Positions 1,533 through 41,743 of a DNA stretch of 64,000 nt are shown piece by piece. A program made the position numbers and the translations under genes. The notes beneath the pieces are model-generated. The model had not been told where the DNA came from and did no database searches. It saw only the letters and a program-made list of their open reading frames with translations. This stretch comes from a virus. Lineage: Duplodnaviria; Heunggongvirae; Uroviricota; Caudoviricetes. The stretch is from positions 41,352 through 105,351 of the IMG/VR virus record IMGVR_UViG_3300031555_005503. One strand, given 5' to 3'. Every line of letters begins with the position of its first letter. Position 1 is the stretch's first letter.

Positions 1533-3902
1533 ATGGCCCAGGAATTAGATTTAAAAATAAAAATACTTAAAGCTAATGCCGAAGCAGATTTGTCTAAAAT
1601 AATTACAGAGCTTGAAGGTAATCCAGTCAATCTCAAAGTTAAGATTGATGATAAAAATTTAAAGACGCTTGAAACTCAATTAACTAATATTGCAAAGAAG
1701 GCAAAGCAAGCTTCGAATAGCTTAAATAATATATATAAAAAGAGTTCAAAGAGTAAGGCTTTTGCAGATGCTGACGCCATGATTAAAAAGTTAGAAAAGC
1801 AGAAATCTAAGCTTGAAAAACTTAAGATGTCTGATACTATAACGAGTGGTGAAAAAAGTGCTATTACTAAGCAGGTTAATGCTATAGAACAGCAGCTTGG
1901 TAAATTAACTAAGGCTAAAGAAAGATATGTAAAAGATTCTTATAAATTTAGCGAACAAGCGCAAAAGAATCATGCAAAATTATTATCTGCATCTGACGAT
2001 ATATTTAATAAAGCATCACTTGCAGAGTCTAAATATCGAAAAAATGATATACCACGTCAACAAAAACGTATAGAAGAAAAGGCTTTAAAGAAGGCTCAAG
2101 AAGAAGCCGAAGTGTCAGCAAAAAAAGCCCAAGAAGAATTAGATAAAACATATCGACAATTAACCGGAGCAGATGGGGCTCTTACTGCTAAAGATAAAGG
2201 TTTATCGGGAACCTTACATAAACATAGTGATATAGCTTTAAAAGAGTTTGAGCAATTAAGAGATACTGCTAAACAATATCGAGATGAATACACTAAATTA
2301 ACTGCTCAAGCCAATGATTTTCGTAATAAAATGGCCACAGGCCAGCCAGTTAATTTAGACGAGGTTTATAAAACTCAAGAAGCAATGAAAAATCTTACTG
2401 CTAATATGGATAATCTTCAAAAGAAGGCTGAACATTTAGCGGCGCCTACTCGACAGGCAATGAATGATAGTATTGCTTTTGATAAAATCGGTAGTAGATT
2501 AACTGATTATTATGGCAAGTATGAAAATCAAATAAGTAAAAATGTTAAATTGCAAGAACGTTTTCAGACTTTATTAGGTAAAGCTAATCGAGGTGATTTT
2601 GCTTCTATAGCTGAAGCTAATAGAGAATTTGCGGCATTCCGTACTGAAGCTCGTGCAGCCGGTGTTGAGATTGAAACTTTTGGATCAAAAATGAAGAAGA
2701 CATTTGATACCATGGTTAGGTCTAATCTTGCTGGCTATGGTACGTTTGCTGTAGAAATGGCTGTAACAGATATATTACGAAATACAGTAGCTGTTGATAC
2801 AGCCATGACAGAACTTAAGAAAGTAACAAATGAAACTGATGCAGCATATAGTCAGTTTTTAGATAATGCATCTCAAAGAGCTGAAAAGTTGGGTGCAACA
2901 TTGACTGAAGTAGTAAATGCAACAGCGGATTATGCAAGGCTTGGTTATAACATAGATCAGGCTACTACTTTGGCCGATTCAGCTATCATCTATCAAAATG
3001 TAGGAGATGACATTGCGAGTATAGATGATGCAACCGCTTCATTGATATCAACTATGCAAGGTTTTGGTATAGCTTCAGAAGACTCTATGACTATAGTAGA
3101 TAAGTTTAATGAAGTTGCCAATAACTATGCATCTAGTGCCGGTGATATAGGTGAAATGGTAAGACGTTCTGCAGCTTCAATGAGTGCTGCTGGCAACACG
3201 CTCGATCAGACAATAGCTTTGGGCGTAGCAGCTAACGAAGTTCAGCAGGATGCTGATACTGTCGGAACAGCTTTAAAAACAATGTCTATGAGATTGCGTG
3301 GATCAAAGACCGACCTCGAAGCAGCAGGTCTTGATGCTGAAGGTATGGCTTCGTCCACATCTAAACTTAGAAATGAGCTGATGTCACTTGCTGGAGTTGA
3401 TATCATGCTTAACGAAGATACTTTTAAATCCTCATATGATATCCTTATGGGCATCGGTGAGGTATGGGATAGCTTAAGTGATATAAACCAAGCAAATATA
3501 ACCGAGCTTCTATTCGGCAAGAGACAAGCTAATATTGGTTCAGCTATCCTGCAAAATTACGAACGAGCACAAGAGATATATGAAACATCTCTCAACTCTC
3601 AAGGTTCAGCAACTGCTGAAAACGAGAAGTATCTGGCGTCCGTTCAGGGTCATCTCGACCAATTTATGGCTAAGTGGGAATCATTCTCAACATCAATAGC
3701 CAATTCAGAAGGTCTTAAAATCTTCATTGATCTGGGTGGTCAGATAATTACCATTCTTGATCAACTGACAAAATTCTTTGGAAGTGCAACCATGCTAATA
3801 GTGCCTTTTATGGCTGCAATGTCCAAATTTGGTAACGTCGGTAAATTTAAATATGCCCTCTTACAGCAAGGTAATACAAGCTGTAGGATGATGGTGGCCT
3901 AA
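1533..3902 (+). CDS. tail tape measure domain protein (TP901-family TMP core), 789 aa
   Basis: Coiled-coil, Lys-rich N-terminal half. The central region (GNTLDQTIALGVAANEVQQDADTVGTALKTMSMRLRG..., TELLFGKRQANIGSAIL) matches the TP901-type TMP core. RBS GAGGTGAAAT before the ATG. The stop lies inside the intron-like RNA, so the true 3' end is uncertain. Confidence 0.65.
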   Translation: MAQELDLKIKILKANAEADLSKIITELEGNPVNLKVKIDDKNLKTLETQLTNIAKKAKQASNSLNNIYKKSSKSKAFADADAMIKKLEKQKSKLEKLKMSDTITSGEKSAITKQVNAIEQQLGKLTKAKERYVKDSYKFSEQAQKNHAKLLSASDDIFNKASLAESKYRKNDIPRQQKRIEEKALKKAQEEAEVSAKKAQEELDKTYRQLTGADGALTAKDKGLSGTLHKHSDIALKEFEQLRDTAKQYRDEYTKLTAQANDFRNKMATGQPVNLDEVYKTQEAMKNLTANMDNLQKKAEHLAAPTRQAMNDSIAFDKIGSRLTDYYGKYENQISKNVKLQERFQTLLGKANRGDFASIAEANREFAAFRTEARAAGVEIETFGSKMKKTFDTMVRSNLAGYGTFAVEMAVTDILRNTVAVDTAMTELKKVTNETDAAYSQFLDNASQRAEKLGATLTEVVNATADYARLGYNIDQATTLADSAIIYQNVGDDIASIDDATASLISTMQGFGIASEDSMTIVDKFNEVANNYASSAGDIGEMVRRSAASMSAAGNTLDQTIALGVAANEVQQDADTVGTALKTMSMRLRGSKTDLEAAGLDAEGMASSTSKLRNELMSLAGVDIMLNEDTFKSSYDILMGIGEVWDSLSDINQANITELLFGKRQANIGSAILQNYERAQEIYETSLNSQGSATAENEKYLASVQGHLDQFMAKWESFSTSIANSEGLKIFIDLGGQIITILDQLTKFFGSATMLIVPFMAAMSKFGNVGKFKYALLQQGNTSCRMMVA

Positions 3903-3904
3903 TC

Positions 3905-4235
3905 ACCCACTATGATGAACCCTTAAATTGCTGGAAAAGGCTAATGCCTGCAGACCAAAGCGGAGTCAGAAATGACAGACGTAAAGGTGGAGAAATTCGG
4001 AAAAAACATGCAGGATGAGGTATGCTGAGATAAAAGCCATCTATTTAGATGGTGCTAATCCTTGTAACAATGTCTAATCAGCAGCCAATCCCCTACCCCG
4101 CTTTTGCGACAAGGGGCAGGTTCAACGACTTTAAAGGGGTTCCGGTCTTGTCAACCGGTAAGAGAAAGTCTGAGCTACGGCGAAAGTCGTAGAGGAAGGT
4201 TGAAGTGCCTTCCCGCCATAATTTAGTTAAACCCT
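3905..4235 (+). ncRNA. group I intron-like structured RNA (approximate boundaries)
   Basis: 3926 AAATTGCTGGAAAAGG matches the P element AAAUUGCGGGAAAGG. 4110 GGTTCAACGACTTTAAAGG matches the R element GUUCACAGACUAAAUG. 4162 AGAGAAAGTCTGAGC matches the S element AAGAUAUAGUCGGAC. The P7 pairing is CGACT/AGTCG. There is a GNRA-type hairpin CTACGGCGAAAGTCGTAG and other stem-loops. GC content is well above the flanks and no ORF is present. Confidence 0.45.
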
Positions 4236-4259
4236 CTACAAAGAGGTTATCATATTGCT

Positions 4260-4292
4260 CTCCCCTACCCTATTTGGACTGGGGAGTTTTTA
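4260..4292 (+). terminator. intrinsic terminator candidate
   Basis: CTCCCC...GGGGAG stem followed by TTTTT. Confidence 0.4.
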
Positions 4293-4307
4293 TTAGTTAT
4301 AGTTTTG

Positions 4308-4336
4308 CTCCGTATTTTACGGGGCCTTTTTTATTT
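4308..4336 (+). terminator. intrinsic terminator candidate
   Basis: CTCCGTA-TTT-TACGGGG stem followed by CCTTTTTTATTTTTT. Confidence 0.45.
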
Positions 4337-4357
4337 TTTGAAGTTTGGAGGTTAGAG

Positions 4358-4654
4358 ATGAACAATGGAACTTCTAAAGCATTCATTAGACTTGCTGTGA
4401 CTGCAATTCTAATGTTAAATGCATGGCTCACTGCCAAAGGTATGAACCCTATCCCTTTTGATGAAGCAATGGTAACTGAGGTACTGACTTGTATTGCAGC
4501 TGGTTTATCAGGAGTTTGGGTTTGGTGGAAGAACAATAACGTTAGTAAGGAAGCTCAGGCTGCTCAAATGCTTAAGGATGACATGAAAGTTGATGGCATT
4601 CCTGATCTTTATGCGTATGAAACAGTTGAAATTATTGAAGATGATGAAGAATAA
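4358..4654 (+). CDS. holin (class II, two transmembrane segments)
   Basis: Start refined to ATG 4358, preceded by GGAGGTTAGAG. Two hydrophobic helices (AFIRLAVTAILMLNAWL and VLTCIAAGLSGVWVWW) and a charged acidic C-terminus. Sits immediately upstream of the endolysin. Confidence 0.7.
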   Translation: MNNGTSKAFIRLAVTAILMLNAWLTAKGMNPIPFDEAMVTEVLTCIAAGLSGVWVWWKNNNVSKEAQAAQMLKDDMKVDGIPDLYAYETVEIIEDDEE

Positions 4655-4666
4655 GGTGGTGTTTTA

Positions 4667-5578
4667 ATGGCAACTAAAGTAACTGCGGCTCAAGTAGTCG
4701 CTAAGGCGGTTAGTCAAATCGGTGTTAAGGAATCGCCTAAAAATTCAAATAAGGTAAAATATAATGTTGCGTATTATGGTAGTAATACTGCTGCTCCATG
4801 GTGCGCTACTTTTGTATGGTGGGTATTTAAAGAATGCGGAGATACTTCTATTCTGCCGCTAGGCAAAAAGTCTGATTACTGTCCTGATATTGGTGATTAT
4901 ATTATTGCTAGTGGCAGAAAGAAAGCTAAGAATGCTGGTCAGCCAGGGGATATTGTTCTGTTTGATTTTAATGGAAATGGAACTTCTGATCATATTGGTA
5001 TTATCGAAAAGAAGAATTCTGATGGATCCTATTCTTGTATTGAAGGTAATACTTCACTGACAAGCAATTCTAATGGTGGCGAAGTAATGAGAAGAAAGAG
5101 ATATCAGTCTCAAATTAATCATATTTATAGACCACCATATGCAAGCGCAAGTACAAGTAGCACAAGTACAAGTTCAAAATCTTCTAGTAGCTCAAAATCA
5201 TCCAGCTCAAAATCATCCAGCTCCAAACTTACAGTTGATGGCAAATGGGGTAAGAATACAACTAAAAAGAGTCAAAAAGTTTTAGGTACAGTGCAGGATG
5301 GTATCGTTTCTAATCAGTGGAAGTCATGTAAGAAATATCTGCCTAATTGCTTAACTGATAGCTGGAAATTTGGTAGCAGTAATAAGACTGGTTCTACAAT
5401 GGTTAAGGCGCTGCAGAAGCTGGTTGGAGTTTCTAGAGATGGCGTTATGGGTAAAGGCACAGTTAAGGCTCTACAGAAATTCCTGAAGAAAAAAGGATAT
5501 TATAGTGGATCTATTGATGGTATTTGCGGATCAGGTACTGTTAAGGGTTGGCAAAAATATGTTAATAGCAAGCTTTAA
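4667..5578 (+). CDS. endolysin: CHAP peptidase/amidase domain with C-terminal PG_binding-like repeats
   Basis: CHAP Cys motif PWCATFVWW and His motif DHIGII. Ser/Lys low-complexity linker. Two repeats resembling the peptidoglycan-binding domain (KALQKFLKKKGYYSGSIDGICGSGT). Confidence 0.8.
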   Translation: MATKVTAAQVVAKAVSQIGVKESPKNSNKVKYNVAYYGSNTAAPWCATFVWWVFKECGDTSILPLGKKSDYCPDIGDYIIASGRKKAKNAGQPGDIVLFDFNGNGTSDHIGIIEKKNSDGSYSCIEGNTSLTSNSNGGEVMRRKRYQSQINHIYRPPYASASTSSTSTSSKSSSSSKSSSSKSSSSKLTVDGKWGKNTTKKSQKVLGTVQDGIVSNQWKSCKKYLPNCLTDSWKFGSSNKTGSTMVKALQKLVGVSRDGVMGKGTVKALQKFLKKKGYYSGSIDGICGSGTVKGWQKYVNSKL

Positions 5579-5655
5579 TCTTGCCTAATTTTGTCAAATA
5601 TGCTATAATACATAGGCAAAGTAGTATCGGTTCGTGCCGGTGTTTTCAATGTATT

Positions 5656-5688
5656 AACCCGTCTTCTATGACGGGTTGAATTTTTTAT
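5656..5688 (+). terminator. intrinsic terminator after the lysis cassette
   Basis: AACCCGTC/GACGGGTT stem followed by a T6 run. Confidence 0.6.
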
Positions 5689-5698
5689 TATAAAATAT

Positions 5699-5733
5699 AA
5701 AGCCCGCCTTTTATTGAGACGGGCTTTTATTAA
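5699..5733. terminator. bidirectional hairpin terminator
   Basis: AGCCCG...CGGGCT stem with T-rich tracts on both strands. Lies between the + lysis genes and the - gene 5730..5996. Confidence 0.45.
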
Positions 5734-5996
5734 TTATGCAAAGAATTCATATAGATGCAAAATAATGTTGTTGAACTTATGTTGTGTTTCGACACAATCA
5801 TTGCAATATCGTCAACGAGTAGTTTAAATACTTGATCAATAGATATATTGTATTTCTTTAGTAGTATATCTAATTCTTCTATAATCATTTTGATACTTAT
5901 GTCTGAAAGCTCTTTAAACTCTTTATTTATTTGAGTATCACTTGTTTCGGTATTAGTTATTATTCTGGCTAAAATACATTGTATTGAATCAAACAT
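5730..5996 (-). CDS. hypothetical protein (moron-like)
   Basis: 88-aa ORF on the opposite strand to both flanking operons. Confidence 0.35.
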   Translation of the reverse strand: MFDSIQCILARIITNTETSDTQINKEFKELSDISIKMIIEELDILLKKYNISIDQVFKLLVDDIAMIVSKHNISSTTLFCIYMNSLHN

Positions 5997-6050
5997 AGTT
6001 ACACCTTATTTATTTCAATAAGCATCAATATTAAAAATAACACACCTACC

Positions 6051-6530
6051 CTACTTCTTCTCCCTAATGTTCTTGTCGATAGCAGATGCTGCACCGATAA
6101 CAGCGCCAGTTGGACCAGCAATGATACCACCTGCAACTGCACGGCCTACTACGGATGCAGATTTAGGTTTGCTGTCACGGAGATCAAGACCTGGGCCTGT
6201 ATAACCACCTCTTTCAAAAAAATCATGCATCTTTTGTTTATATTTTTCAAATAATTTTTTGTCGAGTTTATCATTTTCTGGGATATCAACATAAGTTTCC
6301 CAAAAGAATTGATATATCGTTGGAGTAAAATCAAATAAAGTAACTGGTTCTCCTTCTTTTTGAGGCCATTCATTTATTTTATGATTTGTATTTATCATTT
6401 GTGCGTTTTTATATTTTTTAGTAAAAGGGATACATTTAGGATCGCACTCGAGACAATGCTTAGTATCTGAAGAATTACTATAATACGTTTTTAAATTTCC
6501 ACATTGTGGACAGTAGCATATTTTATACAT
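6051..6530 (-). CDS. zinc-ribbon protein with C-terminal glycine-zipper membrane segment
   Basis: Start refined to MYKICY, preceded by GGAGGTGATATT. CPQCG..CLEC zinc ribbon. C-terminal VGRAVAGGIIAGPTGAVIGAASAI glycine zipper. Confidence 0.5.
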   Translation of the reverse strand: MYKICYCPQCGNLKTYYSNSSDTKHCLECDPKCIPFTKKYKNAQMINTNHKINEWPQKEGEPVTLFDFTPTIYQFFWETYVDIPENDKLDKKLFEKYKQKMHDFFERGGYTGPGLDLRDSKPKSASVVGRAVAGGIIAGPTGAVIGAASAIDKNIREKK

Positions 6531-6631
6531 AATATCACCTCCATACATCCATATTTTACCAAAATAATGTAAGATTAAATAAAACTACTTAGGGTTTAAA
6601 ATACCCTTAATAGTTACAAAACAACTAAATT

Positions 6632-9600
6632 ATGGTCAGTAATAATTGGCTGATTACCAATTATGAAAGTAACAGAATGATATTTAAATCCATTGAAAGA
6701 ATGGATGCGGATGGTAATATTACTAATGCTGTTTCATGGGGTATTGGTGGATTTGGACAAGCTAAAAAAGACAAACAAGAATTTCAAGATGCGTTAAACG
6801 AACAAGCTCATAAACGAGATAAGCAAGCTATTGCAGACTTTAATCATATGGTTAAAGTGCAAAACAAGAGTGTTAGTGAAGCTATTGCAAATTTAGGTGG
6901 GGCATCTGAAGCTGTAAAGCAATACTGTCAAGATGCTGGTGCAGCAGGTGCTGATGTTGATAAGTTCACTGAAAAACAAAAAGCTCAGCAAGAAGCTCTT
7001 GAAAAATCCAAGAAAGGCTTCAAAGGACTATCTGCTGCAACTAAAGCTATGGGCGCTAATATCCTGCTTGATCTTGGTGTTGCTGCTGCCATTGCTGCTA
7101 TCTCTGCTGGCTGGAACAAACTCAATAACGAATTTAAAATCACACCTGCCAAAAAGATCGAAGCCATGGAAACTACAGTCAACGACTACAATGCTGCCAT
7201 GGAAGAAAGTCAGAACGGCATTAAAACTATTCAGTCTCTTGAATCTGAATTTACTAGACTTTCTCAGGGTGTTGATGATAGCGGTCGTAATATCAGTCTA
7301 AGTGCTGAGGAATATGAACGATATAACGAGATAGTTAAAGAGTTGGTGGGTATAAGTCCTGAGTTAGTTCAGGGTTATACTGCTGAAGGAAATGCGATTG
7401 TAGATCGTAATACTGCTATCAAGGATGGGATTCAAGCTCAGAAGGATTATGCGGATGCGGCTAAAAATGCTTATACTGCTTCTATTAATGATATTGTCAA
7501 AGGTTCTAAAGAAAACATGAAGACTTCCACATCAGAAATGCGTGGTAGTCTTAGCGATTTTAGAGGATTAGATAGTATTACTTCTGATGTTGGATATAGT
7601 TCGAGATTAATAAATAAAGCATTAGGATATCAAGCAGATTTAACGACTGCTTCTGCTGAAACTCTAAATGATATTTATACTCATCGTGCTGAAATTATAA
7701 AATTAGCTAAAGAAGATGGCGTTGAAGAAGATAAAATTGCTGAAATGGAGGCTTATCTTAGTCAAATCGGTTCTGCATATTCTGAATTCGAATCATCTAT
7801 CCAGCCAATTTTAGATGTACTTAATGCATCTATTGCTGAAAATGCAAAAGTTCTTCCTGAATCTATGAGGGATAATTTACAAGCTGGGCTTAAAGAAATT
7901 GCAACTTTAGATATAGATGGCACAGAAATGAAAGCTAAAGCAATTCAACTCGTTGATACATTAGATACAATTTATAAATCTAATGAAGGTGGATATGCTG
8001 ACGCTTTAAAAGAAGCCAAAGAGGCTCAAGAAGACTTTATGGATTCTGATAGGTCTAAAGATGATGTTATTGAATACGATAAAGTTGTTCAGGATCATAT
8101 AGACACCATAACCGACTTAGCTAAAGAATACCAAAAAGCTGGTGACGATATTACCGCTGCGGCATTGTTTGAAGAAGCTTCTAAAATGGCGGACTTTGCA
8201 ACAGAGAATGTTCTTACTCTTGCTGAAGCATTTAATCCTTTAGCATCTGCGATGGAAGAGGCTCAAGGTGCAAAAGAGAAATTTGATAATGCTATGTCAG
8301 CTAATCCTGATTATGATACAGCTATCAATAGTTTTGGCGAAATTTTTGATGAAATTCTAGATGGCGATGATAATAAAGGTAATGGAAGTAAGGCATTTTG
8401 GCAAGGCGCAGAACAAATTCTCGGTTCAAAAACAATTCGTGAACTTGGCGGCGATTTCGATAAGGTTAATGCTCGCTTAAAAGAACTTAAATCTGGTGCA
8501 AAAGATAGTGCTTCTGCAACTGGTAAGTTCTTTAATATGCTTTTAAATAATGCAGATGAAATTGCAGAATTAGATTTAGGTAAAGTTTGGCAAACATCAA
8601 ATGGTGAAATTAAGTTTGATATTGATTCAAGCAATTGGGCTGAAGTTGCTGATATATTAGGCGTATCATATGAGTATTTAATTGCTATGCTTGATATGTC
8701 TAGAAAATGGGCAGAAATTGATTTATCTGATGATAATGCTGTAAAAACAGCCATTAGCGAAATGGAAACAACCCATAAAACTGCTGATGGAGAAATGTAT
8801 CAGCTTTATAGCAATATTCAATCTGAGGCTGTTGCCGCTGGATTAAGTATAGAAGAACTTGATGGGAAAATTAAGGATCTTACTTCAGAAGGTGTCCATG
8901 TAATCGATTTAGAGGTTGATGCTCCTGAAGATATTGCTGGCGCTCTTAGTGGAATGAGCAGTCAGCTCGCAACAGAGAAAGACGGAAAATATAAAATTAA
9001 TATTGAGAAAACCGTTGCTCAGTTGTTGGATATGGGAGCTAGTGAAGCTCAAATTGAAAAAACCATAAGTAAATGGGAAAAAGACGAAGATAAAAAATTT
9101 GAGTTACAAACAAAGAAACCTGATGATACTGAGTGGTCTGAATGGATTGGCAATATTAAAACAGAATGGCAAGCCGGTCTAGAAGATACTGATGATCCTT
9201 TCACAAAACTTTCAGACTCTGCAGATAAATTTGCTTCTTCAATTGAAAGATTAATAGCAGCATTAGGTTTTATGCCTGATATTGATATAGAAAGTAATCT
9301 TGACGATGTAAAAGAAGATATTGAAGATTTTGCTTTTAATTATGGCAATTTATCTGAGCTTGAAAAAGAAAAAGCTGTTGAAGGAATTAGCAATGAAATT
9401 GAAGAAGCCAAAGAACAACTTGATACTCTTAAAGCTTTAAGAGATGATCCTAATAATAAACTTACAAAAGATCAAAAAAATCAACTTGAATTAGATATAA
9501 CTAATGCTGAAAAGAATATTAAATTATATTCAAAGCTATTAGAAGATGTCAAAGACGATGGCGTTATTAATAATAGTATTAATTGCACAGTTAAAGGATA

Positions 9601-12600
9601 TGATGAACTTTTAACTGCGAATGAAGCTATAGAGGAAAATTCCGAAGAACCTGTTGAAAAAACGGTTGAATATACTGCAGTTTTACAAGAAGAATATGAT
9701 AAAATTGAAAACTGGGGATTAAGTGAATATGCTGAAGAAATAAAGAATGGTACTATTCAATCTGTTTTCGGAAATGTTGATATGGATAAGCGACCTATTA
9801 TTGAATGGTCGGATAAATTAAAGAAAACATATCAAGATGAACTTGCAAGTTGGGTTGATAGTGACGGCAATGTATATGATCCTATAGTTGGACAAATTGA
9901 TACTGTTTTGGGCGGTTCAGGTGGATTTAATATAGGTGACGAAGTTGTAGAAATTGCTTACACTCCTATTATGGAGGTTGATGGCGAAGCAAAATATCTT
10001 GGTAAAAATACTTTGGATAATTACATACAAAGTATTATAGATGAGGCTAACAAAGATGGGCAATGGTCACTTGATGAAATTTTAAAACTCGATGCTAAGG
10101 GTTTAAAAGTTGATAAAATTAATAGTGCTGGTGAGGTTGTAGGTAAAGAGTTTGTTAAAGGCGTAATTGCCGCTGTTGGTGATGAAGGCGCAATTTCTGC
10201 ACGAGACGTTGGCGAATTAATGCATTTTGCTGGTGATTATGGTGCTATTGGATTAGCTTCAAATGTTGAAAATCTTTCCAAAGAAATTGAAGTAGTATAT
10301 GATGATTCAAAATCATTAGACGATGTTGTTAATAATATACGTTTAATCGAAAATGAACAAATACAAAAAGAAGTTCTTTTAAAAACTGTAACTGATGGCA
10401 CATATAATGAAATCTTTAAAGGTTTATCTTATAATGATCAGAACATTGTCTTAAATGCAATTGTACAAGGCGATGGCAATTTTAATCAGCTTAGAAGAAT
10501 TATCGAGAGAATCGATAATGAAGATATTAGAGCTCAAATTGTTGCAGAATTAACTAATGCTGGAGCATTTAATGAATTTTTAAATAATATTAATCTTCTT
10601 ACCAATGAAGAGAAAAAAGTTGTAGTTGATGCTCTTGTCAAAGGAAAAGGCGACGCTGAAGAATTAAATGAAATATTATCTAACTTATCAGAAAGAGATA
10701 GAATCAAACTTACTGATTTAATAGAATCTACTGGTATAAAACTTACAGCTGATACTTCAGGTGTTGAAGAAGGCGTAGATATAGTCGAACAAAAAATAGG
10801 TCTTCTCCCTCCTTCTCATAATACTGTATTTGACGCTGATCCTTCTAAGGCATTATTCGCTTCTAATCAAGTTAATTTAGCAATTAATGATATTGACAAA
10901 GATCCATTTATAACTATTGGTGGAGGACTTTCGCCTAATCTTCAAAGTGCGTTAAATCGTATGAAGTCTTTGTTAAGCCAATCGAAAGCTGCTGGTTGGG
11001 TTCCTGCTGCAGAAGGCACATCTAATCGCCGTGTCTACCCTTCTATGGCTAGTGGTGGTAAAGTTGGACCAAATGGAAATGGTGGATTAACTCTTACCGG
11101 CGAATTAGGAACTGAACTTGTATGGCTTCCGGATCAAAATGAATCATTCTTAGTTGGTCAGTTTGGTCCTGAAATGGTTAATCTCCCTGCCAACGCCGTT
11201 GTTTGGCCTGCTGATGAAACTCGTCGTATTATTGGAGATACTATTCCGCATAGTCGCATGAGATTTGGCTCTTCTGCTGAAGGGCATATGACATTCGGTT
11301 CTATGTCTACCGGTGGCTTTAACTCTTCTAGTTACGGTGGATCCAGTTCAAAATCTTCTTCAAAGAGTAAATCTTCCTCTTCTTCTTCCGACTCAGCTTA
11401 TGAGAAAGCTAAAAAAGAGCTGGAACATCAGCTTGAAATGGGCTATATCACAGAAAGTGAATATTATACTAAACTCAAGAAGCTCTATGATAAATATAAG
11501 AAAGATCTTAAGAAGAATGTTGATGATCAGCGTGCAGCTCTTGAAGATTTACGTAGTGCTTGGATTGATGCTTATGAGGCTGCTGTTGATTCTTTAGATC
11601 ATCAGCTTGAAATGGGTAAAATTTCAGAAGCTGACTATCTGAAACAGCTTAAAGCTCTTGGTGATAAATACTTTAAAAATCGTAAAGGTTATGATAAGGA
11701 GTGGAAAGATCACCTCGAAGATCGCAAAGATGCTGCTAATGATGCTTATGATGCTGAAGTTGAAGCGCTCGAAGATTCACTTGATCGTGGTTTAATTAGT
11801 ATCCAGAATTACTATGCTGCCGTTACTAAGTTGCAGAATAAATATCTGACTGGTAAGGAAATGGTCGATGATCTCAAAGATGCCCAAGATGACATGTATG
11901 ATAATCTCATGGATGGTCTTGATAAGATTTGGGAAGATGCTGAACAGCAGATAGAAGATAATGATTTATTTGGCACTTGGGTTGAAGGCGGCCCTACTGC
12001 CATCGAAATCATGGAAGATGCATTTGACGAAATTGAAAAATTAAGTCATGATTATTTTGCAACAGAAACTGAACGTCTTGAATATCTTAAGGATAAAGAG
12101 CGCGAACTTGCAGAGGCTCGTAAGGATTATTATGAGGAGCGACAAGACCAATTAGATACGATTCTTGATTTAATTGAAGATATGCTTCGTCAAGAAGCTG
12201 AAGATTATATCGATTCTTTAGAAAAGCAAAAGGATGCGTATCAGGATATTATAGATGCCAAAAAGAAGTCCTTACAGCTTACTGAACGTGAACTGGATTA
12301 TCAGGATGAAATGAATGATTCTGCGCAAGAAATCAGTAAGCTTCAAGCTCGAATTGCAGTTCTCAGTCGTGATGATAGTAGAGCTGCAGCTGCAGAACGA
12401 GCAGAATTAGAAGCTCAGCTTGCAGAGGCTTTAAAAGATCAGAATCGAGCACAGCGCGACGAAACTTTGAATAGAACTGAAGATAGTCTTGATAAACAAG
12501 CTGAATTATTTACATCACTTATTGATAAGCAGATTGAAGTTGTTCAAAATTGGTTAGATAATAAATCAGCTGTTCTTGAAGTAGTTATGGATACTGTTGA

Positions 12601-13243
12601 ACAACGCGAGACTAACAATCTTCTGAATCGCCTTATTGCTTATAATGGTGAACATGGCGACGCAATGATGTCTACTATTGAAACCGCAATGAAAGATCTT
12701 GATGGTTTAATTGCGGAATATGGTAATGATGTTGAAAGTATCGTTGAGATTCTTCAGAAAGGTATTAATGTTCATGTTACTGGTGGTATTATCGGTGTAG
12801 ATCAAACTGATTATGCTGAAACTCAGACGGAAACTAAAAATAAACCGATAACGCATCATGATGGCCTTGCAACTGGATTTACTGGTAATGGCGCAGATCA
12901 GAAACAGCATGAAGTATATCGTTTACTTACTGATGATGAATTAGTATTTAATCGTGAAGATCAGTTGCGTATTGCAAGCCAGCTTCAGGTTCTTGATACT
13001 GTGAAAAAATCATTTTCTAATTTAGCTAAAGGCACTATTGCGCAGCCGTCGCAAACTAACCAGACTATTGAGTTAGTTATTAATGCCCCTATTACAATCC
13101 AAGGTAATGCAACTACCGATGTGGTAGAAAAGATCGAAAAGGCTATAGATAGCAGCGCAGACAAAGCATTATCTAAACTTAACGAAGCGCTTAGGATTAA
13201 TGGTGTTCATAGTAGAGCATCATCAAATTTACGAAAAAATTAA
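6632..13243 (+). CDS. tail tape measure protein (2203 aa) with C-terminal tandem coiled-coil repeats
   Basis: Very large coiled-coil protein placed directly upstream of Dit and Tal. Hydrophobic segment ILLDLGVAAAIAAISAGW. Ser/Lys linker. Three ~55-aa HQLEMGxISExxY repeats. Confidence 0.6.
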   Translation: MVSNNWLITNYESNRMIFKSIERMDADGNITNAVSWGIGGFGQAKKDKQEFQDALNEQAHKRDKQAIADFNHMVKVQNKSVSEAIANLGGASEAVKQYCQDAGAAGADVDKFTEKQKAQQEALEKSKKGFKGLSAATKAMGANILLDLGVAAAIAAISAGWNKLNNEFKITPAKKIEAMETTVNDYNAAMEESQNGIKTIQSLESEFTRLSQGVDDSGRNISLSAEEYERYNEIVKELVGISPELVQGYTAEGNAIVDRNTAIKDGIQAQKDYADAAKNAYTASINDIVKGSKENMKTSTSEMRGSLSDFRGLDSITSDVGYSSRLINKALGYQADLTTASAETLNDIYTHRAEIIKLAKEDGVEEDKIAEMEAYLSQIGSAYSEFESSIQPILDVLNASIAENAKVLPESMRDNLQAGLKEIATLDIDGTEMKAKAIQLVDTLDTIYKSNEGGYADALKEAKEAQEDFMDSDRSKDDVIEYDKVVQDHIDTITDLAKEYQKAGDDITAAALFEEASKMADFATENVLTLAEAFNPLASAMEEAQGAKEKFDNAMSANPDYDTAINSFGEIFDEILDGDDNKGNGSKAFWQGAEQILGSKTIRELGGDFDKVNARLKELKSGAKDSASATGKFFNMLLNNADEIAELDLGKVWQTSNGEIKFDIDSSNWAEVADILGVSYEYLIAMLDMSRKWAEIDLSDDNAVKTAISEMETTHKTADGEMYQLYSNIQSEAVAAGLSIEELDGKIKDLTSEGVHVIDLEVDAPEDIAGALSGMSSQLATEKDGKYKINIEKTVAQLLDMGASEAQIEKTISKWEKDEDKKFELQTKKPDDTEWSEWIGNIKTEWQAGLEDTDDPFTKLSDSADKFASSIERLIAALGFMPDIDIESNLDDVKEDIEDFAFNYGNLSELEKEKAVEGISNEIEEAKEQLDTLKALRDDPNNKLTKDQKNQLELDITNAEKNIKLYSKLLEDVKDDGVINNSINCTVKGYDELLTANEAIEENSEEPVEKTVEYTAVLQEEYDKIENWGLSEYAEEIKNGTIQSVFGNVDMDKRPIIEWSDKLKKTYQDELASWVDSDGNVYDPIVGQIDTVLGGSGGFNIGDEVVEIAYTPIMEVDGEAKYLGKNTLDNYIQSIIDEANKDGQWSLDEILKLDAKGLKVDKINSAGEVVGKEFVKGVIAAVGDEGAISARDVGELMHFAGDYGAIGLASNVENLSKEIEVVYDDSKSLDDVVNNIRLIENEQIQKEVLLKTVTDGTYNEIFKGLSYNDQNIVLNAIVQGDGNFNQLRRIIERIDNEDIRAQIVAELTNAGAFNEFLNNINLLTNEEKKVVVDALVKGKGDAEELNEILSNLSERDRIKLTDLIESTGIKLTADTSGVEEGVDIVEQKIGLLPPSHNTVFDADPSKALFASNQVNLAINDIDKDPFITIGGGLSPNLQSALNRMKSLLSQSKAAGWVPAAEGTSNRRVYPSMASGGKVGPNGNGGLTLTGELGTELVWLPDQNESFLVGQFGPEMVNLPANAVVWPADETRRIIGDTIPHSRMRFGSSAEGHMTFGSMSTGGFNSSSYGGSSSKSSSKSKSSSSSSDSAYEKAKKELEHQLEMGYITESEYYTKLKKLYDKYKKDLKKNVDDQRAALEDLRSAWIDAYEAAVDSLDHQLEMGKISEADYLKQLKALGDKYFKNRKGYDKEWKDHLEDRKDAANDAYDAEVEALEDSLDRGLISIQNYYAAVTKLQNKYLTGKEMVDDLKDAQDDMYDNLMDGLDKIWEDAEQQIEDNDLFGTWVEGGPTAIEIMEDAFDEIEKLSHDYFATETERLEYLKDKERELAEARKDYYEERQDQLDTILDLIEDMLRQEAEDYIDSLEKQKDAYQDIIDAKKKSLQLTERELDYQDEMNDSAQEISKLQARIAVLSRDDSRAAAAERAELEAQLAEALKDQNRAQRDETLNRTEDSLDKQAELFTSLIDKQIEVVQNWLDNKSAVLEVVMDTVEQRETNNLLNRLIAYNGEHGDAMMSTIETAMKDLDGLIAEYGNDVESIVEILQKGINVHVTGGIIGVDQTDYAETQTETKNKPITHHDGLATGFTGNGADQKQHEVYRLLTDDELVFNREDQLRIASQLQVLDTVKKSFSNLAKGTIAQPSQTNQTIELVINAPITIQGNATTDVVEKIEKAIDSSADKALSKLNEALRINGVHSRASSNLRKN

Positions 13244-13251
13244 TTATTTCT

Positions 13252-13286
13252 TGTGGACGTCTTATATGGGCGTCCACTTTTATTTA
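13252..13286 (+). terminator. intra-operon hairpin (attenuator/terminator) between TMP and Dit
   Basis: GTGGACG...CGTCCAC stem followed by TTTTATTTA. Confidence 0.4.
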
Positions 13287-13312
13287 TATTAAAAGGAGGA
13301 AGCTATTTAGAT

Positions 13313-15457
13313 ATGTATAAATCAACTGGATTTATCTTTGATGGTGTATCGAGTGAAACGTATGGCCTTATGATCTATTTTCTAGATGACCAAACTGAAC
13401 GTGAAATTTCTCTTGGTACAGATGTTGAAGTAATTGAAGATAGGCTGCCGAAGCGAATTAATCCTATTCATTATGGTGTGGATATAAATAAATCAATGAG
13501 CTTCCCTCTCACTTTTGGCAGCACTGAATATTTAGAAGACTATGATGTAGATGCCATACTTTCATGGCTGACCGGACATCAACAATATAAATGGTTAGAA
13601 TTTCTTGATGGTGATCATTATGTTAGATATAAATGTCATTTGAATAATATGACATCTATATACATTAATGGTCTTCCTGTTGCATTCTCATGCGATGTAG
13701 AATGCGATGGACAGTTCGCTTATGAATATCCGCGTGAATACTCGTATGATATTAGTGAAACAGAAACTTATATTGAATTTTTTAATAAAAGTTCATACAA
13801 TGGATATCTTTATCCACAATTAAAGTTAGAGTTTGCAGATGATTGCAGCTCTTTTTCTATTATTAATGAAAGTGATAACAATCGTGAATTTAAAATTGAT
13901 TGTTTTGATAGAGTCGTAACAAATACTTCGGCTAATGAATATAGATATGAAAGTACTATTGCAGAGGAAGCGTTAGATGTGGATGTCAATACTGAATTAA
14001 TTTCATGGCAAGTAAAAGAAATAACAGCTACTGATATTTATTCTGAAATTATTAAAGGTGAAATTGATGAAGTTGAAATTTGGATAGCTTTACCACAAAA
14101 CAGTAACAAAGCTTTATATTCTGAAGATAAAGGTGAATCATGGCATGAAGCCTCCCCTGCCCTACCTCATGTTGGAAATTGGACAGGATGTTTTGGTGAA
14201 AGTGGTTTTGTAGCAATTTGCACTGATAACGATCAGGCTATTGCAACTTATTCCCAAACAGGAAAAGGTTGGACATCTACAATAATTGAACTTCCAATAT
14301 CTCAAAAATGGCAAAAGGTAGTTTTTGTAGAAACTGATGGTTTTATGCAGAATCAATATATTGCTATGGGTGGCTCAGATTCGTCCATTATTGCTACATC
14401 TGCTACGGGTTGGGCTTGGCAAATAATTTCCCTTCCAGTTGCTCAAGAATGGCGATCTGCTGTTGCAGGAAATAATAAAATATTATTAGTTGGTGGCAAC
14501 TCAAATATTGCTGTCATGTCTACCGATTGTATACATTGGGAAGAAATAACTTTGCCTAAAAATGCAGCTTGGAGCGCTGGTGCATATGGCCCAAATGGCT
14601 TTGTAATAGTAGCCGATACTTTATATGGTAGTGGTAGTAAAGAACCGATTGCTCTCAGATCTATTGATGGCTATTTCTGGGATGTTATAGATTTTCCAAT
14701 TGGCAGTTGGTCTGATATGACTTTTGGCAATAGTATGTATATGGCTGTTGGTGAAAGGCAATTTATTTATTCTTTTGATGGGGAAATTTGGACTAGTAAT
14801 ACCCTTCCTGCAAATTCAAATCACATAATTTTTCAAGGCGATTATTTTATATGCCCTATTGCATTAAATAAATATTTAATATCTGATTCTGCAGCGACTA
14901 TAGCTGGAGAATTTGAAATCATAGTGCCAGCTGATTCTGCTTTTACAGTTAGTGATGTATATGTATCCGCTGTTATTGGAAATACCATTTCTGATACATC
15001 TTATATTTCTAATGGCACTAAACTTTTAGCTACAAATACAGATAGTGGTGAAATAACAGGTGGTGAATTTGTAGCGATTACTACAGATTTAAGATATGGG
15101 CAAGATATATCAGGTATTATGATGTCTGCAACTTTTGACAAAGATACTAAAACAGTAACAGTTAAATATACTGCAGATTCAAATCATACTTCCGCTATAA
15201 ATGCCCCATTATCTGTTATTGTTGAATATAAAACTTCTTCAACAACAGATCTTGGATATGATGGCTTAGTAGTTAATTTTGATAATTCAAATCAAATAAT
15301 TACAACAAATAAAGAAACTCTTAATATGTACGAGTACTTTAATAAACGGTTTTTAAGACTTGTTAAAGGTCTTAATAAATTAAAAATTAAAACAGACGGT
15401 GGTAATTGTAAAGCAATTATCATTTGTGAATTTCTAAGAAAGGTTGGTGGACGATAA
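13313..15457 (+). CDS. distal tail protein (Dit family), long form with C-terminal extension
   Basis: Start refined to MYKSTGFIFDGVSSETYGLMIYF, the Dit N-terminal signature, preceded by AAAGGAGGAAGC. Confidence 0.65.
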   Translation: MYKSTGFIFDGVSSETYGLMIYFLDDQTEREISLGTDVEVIEDRLPKRINPIHYGVDINKSMSFPLTFGSTEYLEDYDVDAILSWLTGHQQYKWLEFLDGDHYVRYKCHLNNMTSIYINGLPVAFSCDVECDGQFAYEYPREYSYDISETETYIEFFNKSSYNGYLYPQLKLEFADDCSSFSIINESDNNREFKIDCFDRVVTNTSANEYRYESTIAEEALDVDVNTELISWQVKEITATDIYSEIIKGEIDEVEIWIALPQNSNKALYSEDKGESWHEASPALPHVGNWTGCFGESGFVAICTDNDQAIATYSQTGKGWTSTIIELPISQKWQKVVFVETDGFMQNQYIAMGGSDSSIIATSATGWAWQIISLPVAQEWRSAVAGNNKILLVGGNSNIAVMSTDCIHWEEITLPKNAAWSAGAYGPNGFVIVADTLYGSGSKEPIALRSIDGYFWDVIDFPIGSWSDMTFGNSMYMAVGERQFIYSFDGEIWTSNTLPANSNHIIFQGDYFICPIALNKYLISDSAATIAGEFEIIVPADSAFTVSDVYVSAVIGNTISDTSYISNGTKLLATNTDSGEITGGEFVAITTDLRYGQDISGIMMSATFDKDTKTVTVKYTADSNHTSAINAPLSVIVEYKTSSTTDLGYDGLVVNFDNSNQIITTNKETLNMYEYFNKRFLRLVKGLNKLKIKTDGGNCKAIIICEFLRKVGGR

Positions 15458-15460
15458 TAT

Positions 15461-18400
15461 ATGATTGTGGATTTTAAATCTATTAGTCATGATTTTTATG
15501 GCAAAATTGAACAACCTGTGTTAATGTTGAAAACTCCTGATGGTAGAGCTATAACTACAATTAGTAATTATTATGGATTAGACACCATCTTTCGTTTTAA
15601 TGATGTTTCCGAAGTAACATTTTCGGTTCCTGCGTTTTATGAAGGAATTCCTAATAATGGATATGAGGAAATACATGGATTAAGACTTGTAGAAGTTGAA
15701 CCTTTTGGAGATTTTATTTTAGTTAATCCTGAAATTTCTAATGAAGGTGGTAAAAAAGAGATTAAAGTATGTAAGGCGTATTCTCTTGAGTACGCCTTTA
15801 ATAAAAAGAAAATTGATATTGCAGCCGGAACATATAATTTTTATAATCCAATCGATAATACTGATACTATTATGCAGATAATAGTTGATTTGATGCCTGA
15901 TTGGAGTATTGGGGAAATAGATAGAAAACTTATAGGACGTTGGAGAACTTTCGACAATATAGATGACAATTTATATTCTTTTATGATGAATACTCTTCAA
16001 GAGTCATTTAATTGTTTATTTCTTTTTGATACATTTAATAAAAAAATAAATGTAATGGAAGCAAACAGATCAACTTATAAATTACCAATTTATCTTTCTT
16101 ATAATAATTTAATTAAAAATGTTAAAATTACTGAACTTTCCGATGAAATTGTTACAGCTCTTTCTGGATATGGTTCAGGAGACGATGTTGATATACGTAC
16201 TGTAAATCCTAATGGAACAAATACAATTTATAATTTAGATTATTTTATTTCTAATGGAGATCTTCCAGATGCTTTAGCTGCAAAATGGGTTACATATGAT
16301 GATTCTTTGGAAGTATATCGTCAAATATTTTCTAATTTATCAGTTTTAGAGACTCAGAAAATAAATGAACGCGAATTAGCAAATGCAAAACGTATTGTAC
16401 TTGAAACTGAATATGATAATTTAAATACTACATATCTTACAGCTCAAACAAATAAAGATGTTAATGCGGATTATGATTATGAAATTGCAGTTTTAAGAAG
16501 TTCTCTTTTAGCAAAAGAAGTTGAGCTCAATATCCAAATTAAGCATATCGAAATGCTTGATACTGATATTGCAGAAATTGAAAAGAAGATAACAGAGATT
16601 ACAAATGTTTGTAAAATTGAATCTTATTTTACAAAAGAAGAGATAAAAATTCTTAGCCAATATTTTATACATGATTCTATAGTAGATGATACATTTGTTA
16701 TTCCTGAATATAGTTCTGCTATTTTAGAAAGCACATCGAATGTTATAACAGAAGATAATTTTGGAAGAATTAAAATAGTCGGTGCAGAAACATATGCAAG
16801 TAATATTGCAGAAGTTTTTACAACCGATGAGAACGGAGTTTATCAAGCTTATACTATAGACCCGGAAAATGGCGAATCTATTTATAATACTAATAATGCA
16901 GATCTTTTCCATGAAATTGATTTGAATCCTGAAATTGCACAAACAGTGGCAGATCAGCTCAATGACAATGAAAAACGAAAAATGTATGAATTTAGAGGCG
17001 GTATATTTGATTTTGCATATGTTGTATATGATGAAATTGAGGGGATTAAAACACCTAAAAATGTAAATCTTAAAGGTGATATTGTAAATGTAGATTTTGT
17101 TTATAATATTGATAATATGTTAAATTGGGAGAATGATAGCTCTCCTGATATTACAAAATTAGGACATTATACTCTCTCAGCAACCCTTAGAAATGCCGAA
17201 TATGATGGCGTATCATACCCTAATATGAATTTTTTAATACAAGGTATGATTAGAAATAACATTCCTCAGATAGATGATCATTTTATTAGTTTTGAAATTA
17301 GCAACGCAGTATTTTACATAACCGCTTCAAATACTGTATATCAAAAGCAAACAATTATACAAGAACTTTATGATTATATAAATGATAGTTTAAAAAAGCT
17401 GTCTACTCCATCTTATGAATTCTCGGTTGAATCCGGGAATTTTGTTTTTGCAAAAGAATTTGAACCTTTTAAAAATCAGCTAGAACTTGGTTGTACAATC
17501 AATCTTGCACTTGATGATAATGAAGATAATATAATTCAACCTATTCTTATTGAGATTGGTTTAAATTATGATAATGAATCTAGTTTTACTATTACATTTA
17601 GTAATAAATATCGCTCTTCTGGTAGCGAATTTCAACTCGCCGATATAATTACCAATATGAGCCATAAAACGCAGTCTGTGGCGCGAAATAAAGGTAATTA
17701 TCAAGCATATAAAGATAGCAAGGCTGGAAGTCAAGTATCAAATCTTACAACTTCTGCAATTGACGTAGTTAAAAATAAAGTCATTAATTCTTCTAATCAA
17801 GCTATTGAATGGAATAGCTCTGGTATGTTTTTTAGAAAGAAACTTTCAGATGGTTCTTTTGATGGACGTCAAATTGGGATTATTAATGAAGATATAGCAT
17901 TTACAAAAGATGGTTGGAAAACAGTGGATATTGCTATTGGAGCATATAATGATCCTGATAATGAAATTGAAGGATATGGTATTATCGCGCCTAATATTAT
18001 TGGCACTCTTATCGCCGGTGAAAATCTTATTATTGAAAATGAAAATAAACAATTTAAATTTGATAAAACTGGTGCATGGCTATATAATTCTTCTCTTGCA
18101 TTTGTACAGGATTCTATGCCTGAGAAAAATTATCCAGGCGGAAAGCTTTTAATTGATCCTAATTATGGTATTGCTGCAGGTAATGATAAACTATTTACTT
18201 TAAATGGTACTGAAATAACACCATCATTTTGGGATAAAGAAAATGATGAAATTATTTGGGATGAAAATGAGCTTGTTGAAACTGCCGATGGATCTATGTA
18301 TTATGTACCGCTTAATACTCAGTTTTACTTTGATATACATACTGGCAACGCTTATTTCTCAGGTACTATTAATGGTAAAAATATTATTGCAGAAACCATT

Positions 18401-41186: not shown

Positions 41187-41743
41187 AATAATTCTTCCTC
41201 ACTTAAGAATTTTGAAATATCGGTATTCTTTTGATTTTGAGAAATGTTAGTTTCTGAATTTAACGCTTTAACAGTTAATGTTTCTTGCAATGTATCTTTT
41301 GAGATCTTTTCTCTTGTATATTGCTGTATCTTTTTCTTTGCATCAAATTCCTTTTTCACTTCATATGCATGTGATTTTATTATGGCAAAAATATATTTAC
41401 ATTTAGCATTAGAGTCCTTAAATTCTTTATTGCTTATAGCATATATAATATTTTCATAATATCTTTTTACAGTTTCTAAGATCACAGAATATGAATACCC
41501 TTGTAGTTTTTTTAAGTTATATGGCGTAAGTGAGCTATATTCTAAAGAAGGATCATATCCGAGAAAATCTTCATCAATAATTGCTTTAACCTTATTGTAT
41601 GCATCTACCTCGGCCCGATACTCTTTATAAATCTCTTCTGATTTAAAATACCCTTCAGTTTCACTACGGTAAAACTCATCCATATATCCTTGTTCGCCTG
41701 TTGCCTTACATTTTGTTAGCCTATGTGGTATTTTTCTTGCCAT
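41183..41743 (-). CDS. hypothetical protein
   Basis: 186-aa ORF with overlapping stop/start. Confidence 0.4.
   Translation of the reverse strand: MARKIPHRLTKCKATGEQGYMDEFYRSETEGYFKSEEIYKEYRAEVDAYNKVKAIIDEDFLGYDPSLEYSSLTPYNLKKLQGYSYSVILETVKRYYENIIYAISNKEFKDSNAKCKYIFAIIKSHAYEVKKEFDAKKKIQQYTREKISKDTLQETLTVKALNSETNISQNQKNTDISKFLSEEELL

Follow-up and report, generated by a model that had tools for sequence, protein, structure and literature searches.

A predicted 2,818-nt group I intron probably carries a lysis cassette in a peripheral loop within a phage tape-measure gene

The 64,000-nt stretch analysed here (the window) is positions 41,352 to 105,351 of the IMG/VR Caudoviricetes record IMGVR_UViG_3300031555_005503. 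It contains a 789-aa open reading frame (ORF) for the N-terminal part of a tail tape-measure protein (TMP) and, beginning 2.8 kb downstream, a 2,203-aa ORF. We suggest that positions 3862-6679 probably constitute one 2,818-nt group I intron that splits the tape-measure gene and holds a cargo of unrelated genes in a peripheral loop. A preliminary description, made from the sequence alone, had placed a group I intron-like ribozyme at 3905-4235, upstream of the lysis cassette. The ribozyme is present, but its limits have to be redrawn: it starts at 3862, with P1 and P2 occupying 3859-3913, and rather than ending at 4235 the RNA resumes at 6623-6679. The lysis cassette would thus not follow the intron but form part of it, lying in a loop that a covarying long-range helix closes. 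The main parts of the locus are as follows.

1533-3861, + strand: exon 1, TMP N-terminal part, 776 codons and 1 nt, with PhageMin_Tail at residues 448-662
3862-6679, + strand: whole predicted group I intron, 2,818 nt, its 5' end taken from P1 and its 3' end from an invariant G
6680-13243, + strand: exon 2, TMP C-terminal part, 2,187 codons

Exon 1 matches Pfam PF10145 (PhageMin_Tail) with 2.1e-22, and the 2,203-aa ORF occupies 6632-13243 on the + strand, ATG 6632 being the start chosen by the ORF finder. Both align with single proteins. In the uninterrupted 2,528-aa TMP of Brevibacillus phage Sundance, annotated as an SPβ YomI-like lytic transglycosylase, residues 732-1077 align with the 789-aa ORF and residues 2053-2206 with the 2,203-aa ORF. 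Four uninterrupted metagenomic TMPs (L049, L036, L100 and L023) are collinear with the two ORFs as well; in L049, exon 1 residues 575-773 correspond to positions 1-199 and exon 2 residues 75-867 to positions 286-1111. A comparison with intron-less homologues had been recommended, and those proteins extend 1,200-2,700 residues beyond the end of the 789-aa ORF. Exon 2 is not very short, as had been supposed, but is the 2,203-aa ORF. We took 134 related loci from viral and genome collections: 88 have an uninterrupted TMP gene at the site, and 37 (38 with the window) have a split gene with a large + strand ORF downstream. The order N-part, group I core, 2-4 kb of unrelated genes, C-part is common to L002, L004, L005/6 and L009, and the TMP N-parts compared across phages share just 43-72% protein identity. 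Judged from these alignments, 3862-6679 appears to interrupt one SPβ YomI-like tail tape-measure gene.

The Rfam scan that had been proposed as a check returned Intron_gpI (RF00028) at 3784-4192 on the + strand with 52.0 bits (E 2.6e-10; gathering score 50); this is the sole Rfam family to attain its gathering score within the window, and the homologue L002 scores 49.9 bits. The core motifs singled out by the preliminary description are present at 3925-3940 (AAATTGCTGGAAAAGG), 4119-4137 (GGTTCAACGACTTTAAAGG) and 4162-4176 (AGAGAAAGTCTGAGC), and the GC-richness that it remarked on holds for the 5' part of the ribozyme, which has 45-46% G+C against 35% in the next 2.4 kb. Comparative data back the borderline Rfam match, and we conclude that the 789-aa ORF has a group I ribozyme at its 3' end. 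Its helices, all on the + strand, are the following.

3862-4213: ribozyme P1-P9.1, the first 352 nt of the intron, the core ending at 4213
3859-3867 with 3880-3888: P1 helix, with U3861·G3886 at the 5' splice site 3861/3862
3891-3913: P2 hairpin, from the minimum-free-energy fold, with compensatory changes in L002 and L004
3917-3924/4135-4142: P3, from the Rfam alignment and RNAalifold
3929-3934/4078-4083: P4, from the Rfam alignment
3939-4074: P5 and a branched P5abc-like extension with an A-rich bulge
4084-4121: P6/P6a
4127-4130/4167-4170: P7
4143-4157: P8
4175-4192: P9, with a GAAA loop; the Rfam match ends at G4192
4194-4213: P9.1, changed on both sides at six of seven pairs

The P7 proposed earlier as CGACT/AGTCG exists, although its 3' strand is AGUC(U) (4167-4170) and not AGTCG; GNRA-capped P9-like hairpins had also been described, and the first P9 hairpin is capped by GAAA but is the only one of them with a GNRA loop. 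The hairpins of the P5 extension are GAAA-capped. P7.1 and P7.2, the helices of subgroup IA, were not found in the element, where the 3' strand of P3 (4135-4142) runs straight into P8 (4143-4157), and the modelled architecture differs from that of the IA introns usual in phages. RNAalifold predicts 52 pairs, 30 of them with compensatory changes. In the named structure of 54 pairs (P1, P3-P6a, P7, P8, P9 and P9.1), 87.3% of the cells are paired, compared to 75.2% in shuffles and 36-47% with slid partners, none of 500 shuffles attaining the observed values; 28 of these pairs are changed on both sides, and P4 and P7 are invariant across the aligned elements. The minimum-free-energy fold of the cargo-deleted RNA recovers P1, P2, P8, P9, P9.1, the long-range helix and the hairpin at the 3' end, both of which are described below. 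Nucleotide identity was compared between the window and four relatives: the 5' part of the ribozyme is 70-82% identical (52% with L004, the core of which has large insertions), the 3' tail 60-90%, exon 1 64-73%, exon 2 53-56% and the cargo 51-58%, equal to background. The ribozyme is better conserved than its coding flanks, and decay is therefore disfavoured, contrary to the earlier suggestion of a degenerate intron; selection appears to maintain it.

We place the 5' splice site at 3861/3862 because the P1 supported by comparison, in which CUUACAGC (3860-3867) pairs with GCUGUAGG (3880-3887), puts the U·G pair at U3861, because this U·G is kept in ten of ten aligned sequences, and because P1 covaries, with compensatory changes at six of nine pairs. 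On the intron side the ten-element alignment contains UACAGC/GCUGUA, UAUGCG/CGCAUA, UACGCC/GGCGUA and UAUGCAG/CUGCAUA. Rfam itself picks this P1 in L002, and does so in the window when the search is restricted to 3846-4240. Its other P1 for the window, at 3788-3808, has three mismatches followed by an 89-nt insert and was rejected as an artefact, as the protein homology to relatives runs past it, to ...GNVGK, and the comparative P1 lies elsewhere. We also rejected a 5' splice site after U3862, which would bring the window into frame: the same P1 yields in-frame products at the U·G in L105 and L141. The stop codon of the 789-aa ORF (3900-3902) falls inside the element, as had been noticed, and more exactly in the P2 loop (3898-3906, CCUAAUCAC), which contains both this UAA and a candidate kissing sequence, UAAUCA (3900-3905). 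The suspicion that the annotated C-terminus (...LQQGNTSCRMMVA) is intron read-through agrees with this splice site, the final 13 codons being translated P1 and P2. The seeming "conserved C-terminus" of distant homologues would likewise be translated conserved RNA.

The link between this core and the remote 3' end is a long-range helix, whose arms, both on the + strand, and 5' arm classes are listed here.

4215-4228: 5' arm (GCCAUAAUUUAGUU), two bases past P9.1
6623-6636: 3' arm (AACUAAAUUAUGGU), overlapping ATG 6632
5' arm class GCCAUAAUUUAGUU: window, L002, L004, L090
5' arm class GCCGUAAUUAC: L009, L107
5' arm class GCCAUAAUCAU: L026, L032
5' arm class AAGGUUAUAA: L005, L006, L078, L081, L085
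5' arm class GAAUGUUUGUAG: L105

Positions 4216-4228 and 6623-6635 form a perfect 13-nt inverted repeat, with no other perfect one in 3800-6750, and the outer pair G4215·U6636 brings the helix to 14 bp; it closes a 2,394-nt loop (4229-6622). In 14 of 14 loci examined, cognate arms form 10-15 contiguous pairs, whereas arms from different members of the five sequence classes form only 0-3. Pairing holds for 96.8% of the arm cells across 13 aligned arm pairs; shuffles give 64.7%, with none of 500 attaining the observed value, and slid partners 28-49%. Both-side changes occur at 10 of 12 pairs, a count that is partly circular, because the arms were located by a complementarity search. Support independent of that search comes from the non-cognate control and from the constant position of the arms, straight after P9/P9.1 and straight before exon 2. 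We note that AAACCCU (4229-4235) is complementary to AGGGUUU (6591-6597), 26 nt before the 3' arm, in L002 as in the window though not in L004, and may extend the helix; 4231-4248 also folds locally, into a hairpin (CCUCU/AGAGG) similar to the exon 1 end (CCCUCU).

The last 43 nt of the intron (6637-6679) would consist of a hairpin, a short tail and the terminal G.

6642-6664, + strand: 3'-terminal hairpin (AUAAUUGG/CCAAUUAU), its stem covarying
6665-6679, + strand: 3' tail GAAAGUAACAGAAUG, ending in G6679

The stem of the hairpin is AUAAACGA/UCGUUUAU in L002 and CAAUUGG/CCGAUUG in L004. Its loop, CUGAUUA (6650-6656), can pair with the P2 loop (UAAUCA/UGAUUA) in the window, L002 and L004, and by inspection L090 retains five of the six pairs (AAUCA/UGAUU). 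L107 has an alternative complementary loop pair, GUCAAUC/GAUUGAC, which is the only support outside the window clade, and the contact is a modest candidate for docking the 3' end on the core. Immediately before exon 2, which starts A[U/C]N, stands a G that is invariant in 13 of 13 loci from five clades, while the two bases preceding it vary (AU, UU, GA, CA, CU, AA, CC). The boundary reads AUG/AUA in the window, UUG/AUA in L002, L004 and L090, GAG/AUA in L105, CAG/AUU in L005, CUG/AUU in L081, AAG/AUA in L078, CCG/AUG in L026 and UUG/ACA in L107. As this G is invariant across clades, we assign G6679 as the terminal guanosine and begin exon 2 at 6680; the introns of the relatives are 1,722 to 5,940 nt long. 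G6675 and G4192 are possible alternative 3' splice sites. G6675, with the junction UAAUG and a stop overlapping a start, is not the first choice, since the G aligned across clades is 6679. A site at G6635, in frame after ATG 6632, was rejected: the stretch that follows is conserved structured RNA, and L002 and L009 have in-frame stops in it. The predicted 3861/6680 junction joins ...AATATGCCCTCT to ATATTTAAATCC..., or as a search string GGTAAATTTAAATATGCCCTCT to ATATTTAAATCCATTGAAAG. No intron-less allele with the exact exon junction was found among the 88 intron-less loci; the junction 16-mer has 44 matches in IMG/VR, all unrelated to TMP. Pattern scans of IMG/VR and JGI metagenomes for further window-type copies (3' arm and tail) gave chance matches only, and megablast and blastn of the region against GenBank phages gave no match.

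If G4192 were the 3' splice site, the intron would be short, its U/AG junction would create a stop, the protein would end ...KYAL, and everything downstream, the lysis cassette included, would be 3' exon; G4192 could also serve beside the distal site. Rfam aligns its terminal G to 4192, and AG follows G4192 in the window, L002, L004, L090, L009 and L107, giving UAG with the phase-1 U of exon 1. However, the six cases do not count independently, because the conserved AG helps to form the base of P9.1, and the RNA past 4192 is itself structured and under selection, with six of seven P9.1 pairs covarying and the 5' arm covarying with a partner 2.4 kb off. The 3' tail is 60-90% identical and the adjoining exon 2 only 53-56%, and a short intron would leave the 2,203-aa ORF with neither a ribosome-binding site nor a usable start. 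We consider this arrangement very improbable and retain G6679 as the 3' end.

The loop closed by the long-range helix contains the following features; the last line gives counterparts of one of them in related loci.

4229-6622, no strand assigned: cargo loop, 2,394 nt
4268-4284 and 4307-4325, + strand: terminator-like hairpins
4358-4654, + strand: holin (Pfam Holin_SPP1, 1.8e-14)
4667-5578, + strand: CHAP/PG_binding endolysin (Pfam CHAP, 4.6e-12)
5654-5679 (+ strand) and 5727-5699 (- strand): back-to-back terminators
5730-5996, - strand: antisense ORF
6051-6548, - strand: antisense ORF of a zinc-ribbon/Gly-zipper family (phrog_2546)
L002:16063-16671, L004:6206-6847, L009:14965-15498, L107:12435-13010, L064:11448-11984 and L007:12268-12705: phrog_2546 antisense genes in related loci

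The first two hairpins bear out the terminators that the preliminary description had noted at 4260-4336; an anti-hemB match at 4259-4334 (23.7 bits against a cut-off of 49.5) is merely these two and was discarded. Holin and endolysin each have a good ribosome-binding site. The cargo is wholly different between loci: sister introns hold 1.3-5.5 kb, with other lysins, a SocA_Panacea ORF, aspartyl-protease-like ORFs and large DUF7035 proteins, and the contents of the loop appear to be exchanged freely between related phages. The sole recurrent item is the antisense ORF adjoining the 3' arm (phrog_2546, function unknown), the product of which has two zinc ribbons, one N-terminal and one C-terminal, with a Y..P.F motif centrally between them; a glycine zipper splits the C-terminal ribbon. 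A 25-nt inverted repeat, 80% complementary (5574-5598/6555-6579), brackets the antisense module (both ORFs and the terminators) and may mark the ends of an inserted or invertible segment. Terminator-like hairpins recur straight after the 5' arm in the window, L002, L004 and L009; the L005 cargo (13095-16437) has instead a near-consensus σ70-type promoter at 13128-13156 (11 of 12 matches, with TG). This cargo includes the SocA_Panacea ORF and looks like accessory genes expressed from the prophage.

These hairpins raise the question of whether one transcript spans the whole intron. The intron might be split and spliced in trans, two transcripts being joined through the 14-bp helix and the loop-loop contact. 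RNA 1 would end at the terminators and carry exon 1, the ribozyme and one arm; RNA 2 would begin upstream of 6623 and supply everything from the second arm through the hairpin and the terminal G to exon 2. Such a break is suggested by the presence of the hairpins no more than about 90 nt past the 5' arm in the four loci just named, and by a cargo with converging antisense genes and terminators of its own, and a bimolecular assembly would require a helix like the 10-15 bp one at the break point. Against this, the two halves share strand and order in 14 of 14 loci, with 1.3-5.5 kb separating them, dispersed halves being seen in none, and loci of the L005 type lack a terminator after the arm. No convincing + strand promoter was found before 6623, where promoter-like matches occur at the level of chance (14 versus 12.6 expected). 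In SPβ the structural and lysis genes form one operon that is transcribed by SPβ's own RNA polymerase, YonO, which is highly processive and pauses little (PMC5467207); late transcription of this type speaks for one RNA, and the precedent of YonO makes read-through of the terminators plausible. Splicing in trans is in our view decidedly unlikely, and the collinearity in 14 loci, together with the SPβ precedent, favours cis-splicing.

How the exons would be read differs between loci. In every locus the first base of exon 2 opens a codon, and the phase of exon 1 varies by clade.

Exon 1 phase 0, in-frame fusion: L005, L081, L105; L141 and L111 by inspection
Exon 1 phase 1, out of frame: window, L002, L004, L090, L009, L107, L078, L085
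Exon 1 phase 2, out of frame: L026, L032
3853-3855, + strand: ATG in exon 1, 9 nt before the 5' splice site, candidate start of the C-terminal protein

The exons are in frame in three clades, and in these three sister clades the ligated exons would encode one long protein. In the window clade the splice site lies 10, 13 or 16 nt from the conserved GGUAAA (GGUGAA in L107), always 3n+1, and after ligation the N-terminal protein of the window would end ...KYAL-Y-I-stop. The triplet at -9 from the splice site is AUG, GUG or UUG in 13 of 13 loci, and its frame is open across the junction for more than 500 codons in 12 of 13 (364 codons in L090). From ATG 3853 the window would read M-P-S/I-F-K-S-I-E-R, which may be compared with the in-frame N-M-P-S/I-F of L141. 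Tentatively, and with rather more doubt than confidence, we suggest that a C-terminal protein of 2,190 aa starts at ATG 3853 by re-initiation, ribosomes that complete the N-part finishing 17 nt downstream. No Shine-Dalgarno sequence was found before ATG 3853, 6632 or 6677; the holin, endolysin and TMP-N genes each have one. In L002 and L009 the frame of exon 2 is closed up to a few bases before the junction. Because of this closed frame and the lack of a Shine-Dalgarno sequence at ATG 6632 and 6677, exon 2 would depend on splicing, and the C-terminal protein would have no complete reading frame before it.

Several observations weigh against a functional intron of this kind, and some of them are shared with the proposal that the ribozyme is a relic, in which splicing and function are lost and the TMP is made from two genes that have become independent and flank a hot spot of accessory genes. 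The RF00028 score is borderline, falling to 47.6 bits with the comparison-supported P1 (window search limited to 3846-4240), and L090, L107 and L064 lie under the cut-off. Pfam and PHROGs searches of ORFs in the cargo of 10 loci found no homing endonuclease (LAGLIDADG, GIY-YIG, HNH, His-Cys box or PD-(D/E)XK). Out-of-frame exons occur in three of the five clades, and with canonical sites those of the window are off by one base (phase 1 against phase 0). No P10, the pairing of the guide with the start of exon 2, was found by inspection, exon-2 starts such as AUAUUU..., AUUUUG... and ACAAUC... not being complementary to the guides (GCUGUA, CGCAUA, GUAUUA..., which covary between loci). Three + strand terminator-like hairpins and two converging antisense genes imply that host polymerase would rarely arrive at exon 2, and no YonO-like gene was found among the 10 window ORFs examined. 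A scan focused on L007, which has the same split and the antisense gene, detected no ribozyme, so that a TMP in two pieces may be viable unspliced. That the RNA is spliced, how efficiently and at which exact 3' site are predictions from sequence comparison. What speaks against a relic is that compensatory changes preserve P1, P3, P5, P6a, P8, P9, P9.1 and the long-range helix across divergent phages, that P4, P7 and the U·G pair are invariant, that non-coding RNA is better conserved than the coding sequence on either side, and that the C-part has no start signal of its own. We suggest that loss of function is improbable, and that a 2,818-nt intron with its cargo in a peripheral loop remains the probable explanation.

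In our model, late transcription would proceed from exon 1 through the cargo, and the long-range helix would return the 3' tail to the core, probably assisted by the contact between P2 and the 3' hairpin. Guanosine would attack after U3861, and the exons would be ligated at 3861/6680; holin and endolysin would be translated via their own ribosome-binding sites, from the precursor or from the excised intron. It is conceivable, though we regard it as unlikely, that the intron also serves as a gene-expression device, exon 2 becoming translatable only after the RNA of the lysis genes is fully transcribed and excised. The start codon of the C-terminal protein would then sit in exon 1, 2.8 kb from its reading frame, and the choice between stopping at the internal terminators, using the proximal G4192 (UAG) and using the distal G6679 would set the ratio and timing of tail and lysis proteins. 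A stronger version of this device would be natural trans-splicing of a phage group I intron.

Group I introns have been described in the tape-measure genes of prophages of the B. cereus group (TMP-IVS1, IVS2 and IVS3; Tourasse and Kolstø 2008, PMC2504315). Like the intron predicted here these are self-splicing group I elements of temperate Firmicutes phages with several insertion sites per gene, and the phage family of the window also has further TMP introns at other sites. They are, however, compact members of IA1/IA2 with at most a homing-endonuclease ORF or its remnant (PMC2504315). The window intron has no P7.1/P7.2, has a P5abc-like extension, and in it and its relatives 1.3-5.5 kb of unrelated genes lie on both strands, a lysis cassette among them. 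Group I introns in phage tape-measure genes are thus already known; a peripheral loop used as a multi-gene cargo bay was found neither in our literature search nor, at blastn sensitivity, in GenBank phage records, and no published description of a group I intron from a phage or bacterium that contains a lysis cassette, or several genes on both strands, came up in the literature search.

Mechanistically, the closest precedent is the nrdD (sunY) intron of T4, which reportedly has an ORF downstream of the core and a remote 3' splice junction. There too the core is at the 5' end, the P9 region carries a long insert, and a 3'-terminal domain folds back before exon ligation, but the insert is one sense endonuclease ORF of about 0.8 kb. 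The window has a 2.4 kb insert (to 5.5 kb in relatives) with terminators, a lysis cassette and antisense genes, and a 10-15 bp helix. Organellar introns can house host genes, rps3 in a group I intron of the fungal mitochondrial large subunit (LSU) rRNA and matK in the group II intron of trnK; they likewise place a needed gene within a self-splicing intron, but hold single sense-strand ORFs. Nothing comparable for phages or bacteria was found in the literature search. In C. difficile, a c-di-GMP-II riboswitch is said to act with a group I ribozyme, splicing uniting translation signals such that the downstream ORF is translatable only once spliced. That element lies in a 5' untranslated region (UTR), is ligand-controlled and contains no genes, whereas in the window the start codon would be within a coding exon and the Rfam scan detected no riboswitch. 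Within the SPβ lineage, group I introns reportedly occur in bnrdE and bnrdF; these are in ribonucleotide reductase genes and of conventional size, and the ribonucleotide reductase gene of the window (25581-27914) has no intron match in the Rfam scan.

If the intron is spliced, annotation pipelines mis-call the TMP as two ORFs with false ends (13 read-through codons on the first and 16 false leading codons on the second), and accessory genes ("morons") can sit inside an essential structural gene at no cost to that gene. An essential virion protein would then hinge on the removal of lysis-encoding RNA, which would link tail assembly to lysis. The 10-15 bp closing helix would show how a ribozyme can tolerate kilobase inserts, which could help in engineering introns to carry large payloads. 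The out-of-frame clades pose the question of whether the tail-length ruler works as one chain or two.

Introns recur elsewhere in this phage family, in several structural genes. L009 has a second, higher-scoring group I intron (770-1103, 67.4 bits) within a YonB-like gene, and group I introns occupy other sites of the TMP N-part in L049 (8717-8931, 62.5 bits; 9008-9249, 102 bits), L133 (10652-11004, 63 bits) and L142 (10344-10703, 57.7 bits). Many database proteins (P0003, P0005, P0007, P0008 and others) end at query residues 655-665, which probably mark another TMP intron site. At L007:12016-12888 the TMP is split at the same place as in the window by about 870 nt containing the antisense zinc-ribbon gene; this interruption may be an intron of unrecognised type; otherwise the tape measure is truly encoded by two genes.

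The neighbouring genes are of SPβ type (YonD, YonB, YomW, YomV, YomU, YomN), and genes for DNA polymerase III alpha, ribonucleotide reductase, a DnaB-type helicase and an integrase are present in the window. The data point to gut Clostridia as hosts of the related loci and to a large, temperate phage. Among the tail genes, just upstream of the tape-measure gene, an ORF at 379-999 that extends past the window start has Beta-CASP and RMMBL domains (RNase J/CPSF-like metallo-β-lactamase RNase). Downstream of the TMP N-part, L124 has no ORF of at least 300 aa and L139 a single 300-aa ORF (table 11). Downstream of the split TMP region, L133 carries a skipping-rope RNA at 15521-15600 (RF02924, 66.7 bits against a cut-off of 36.7).

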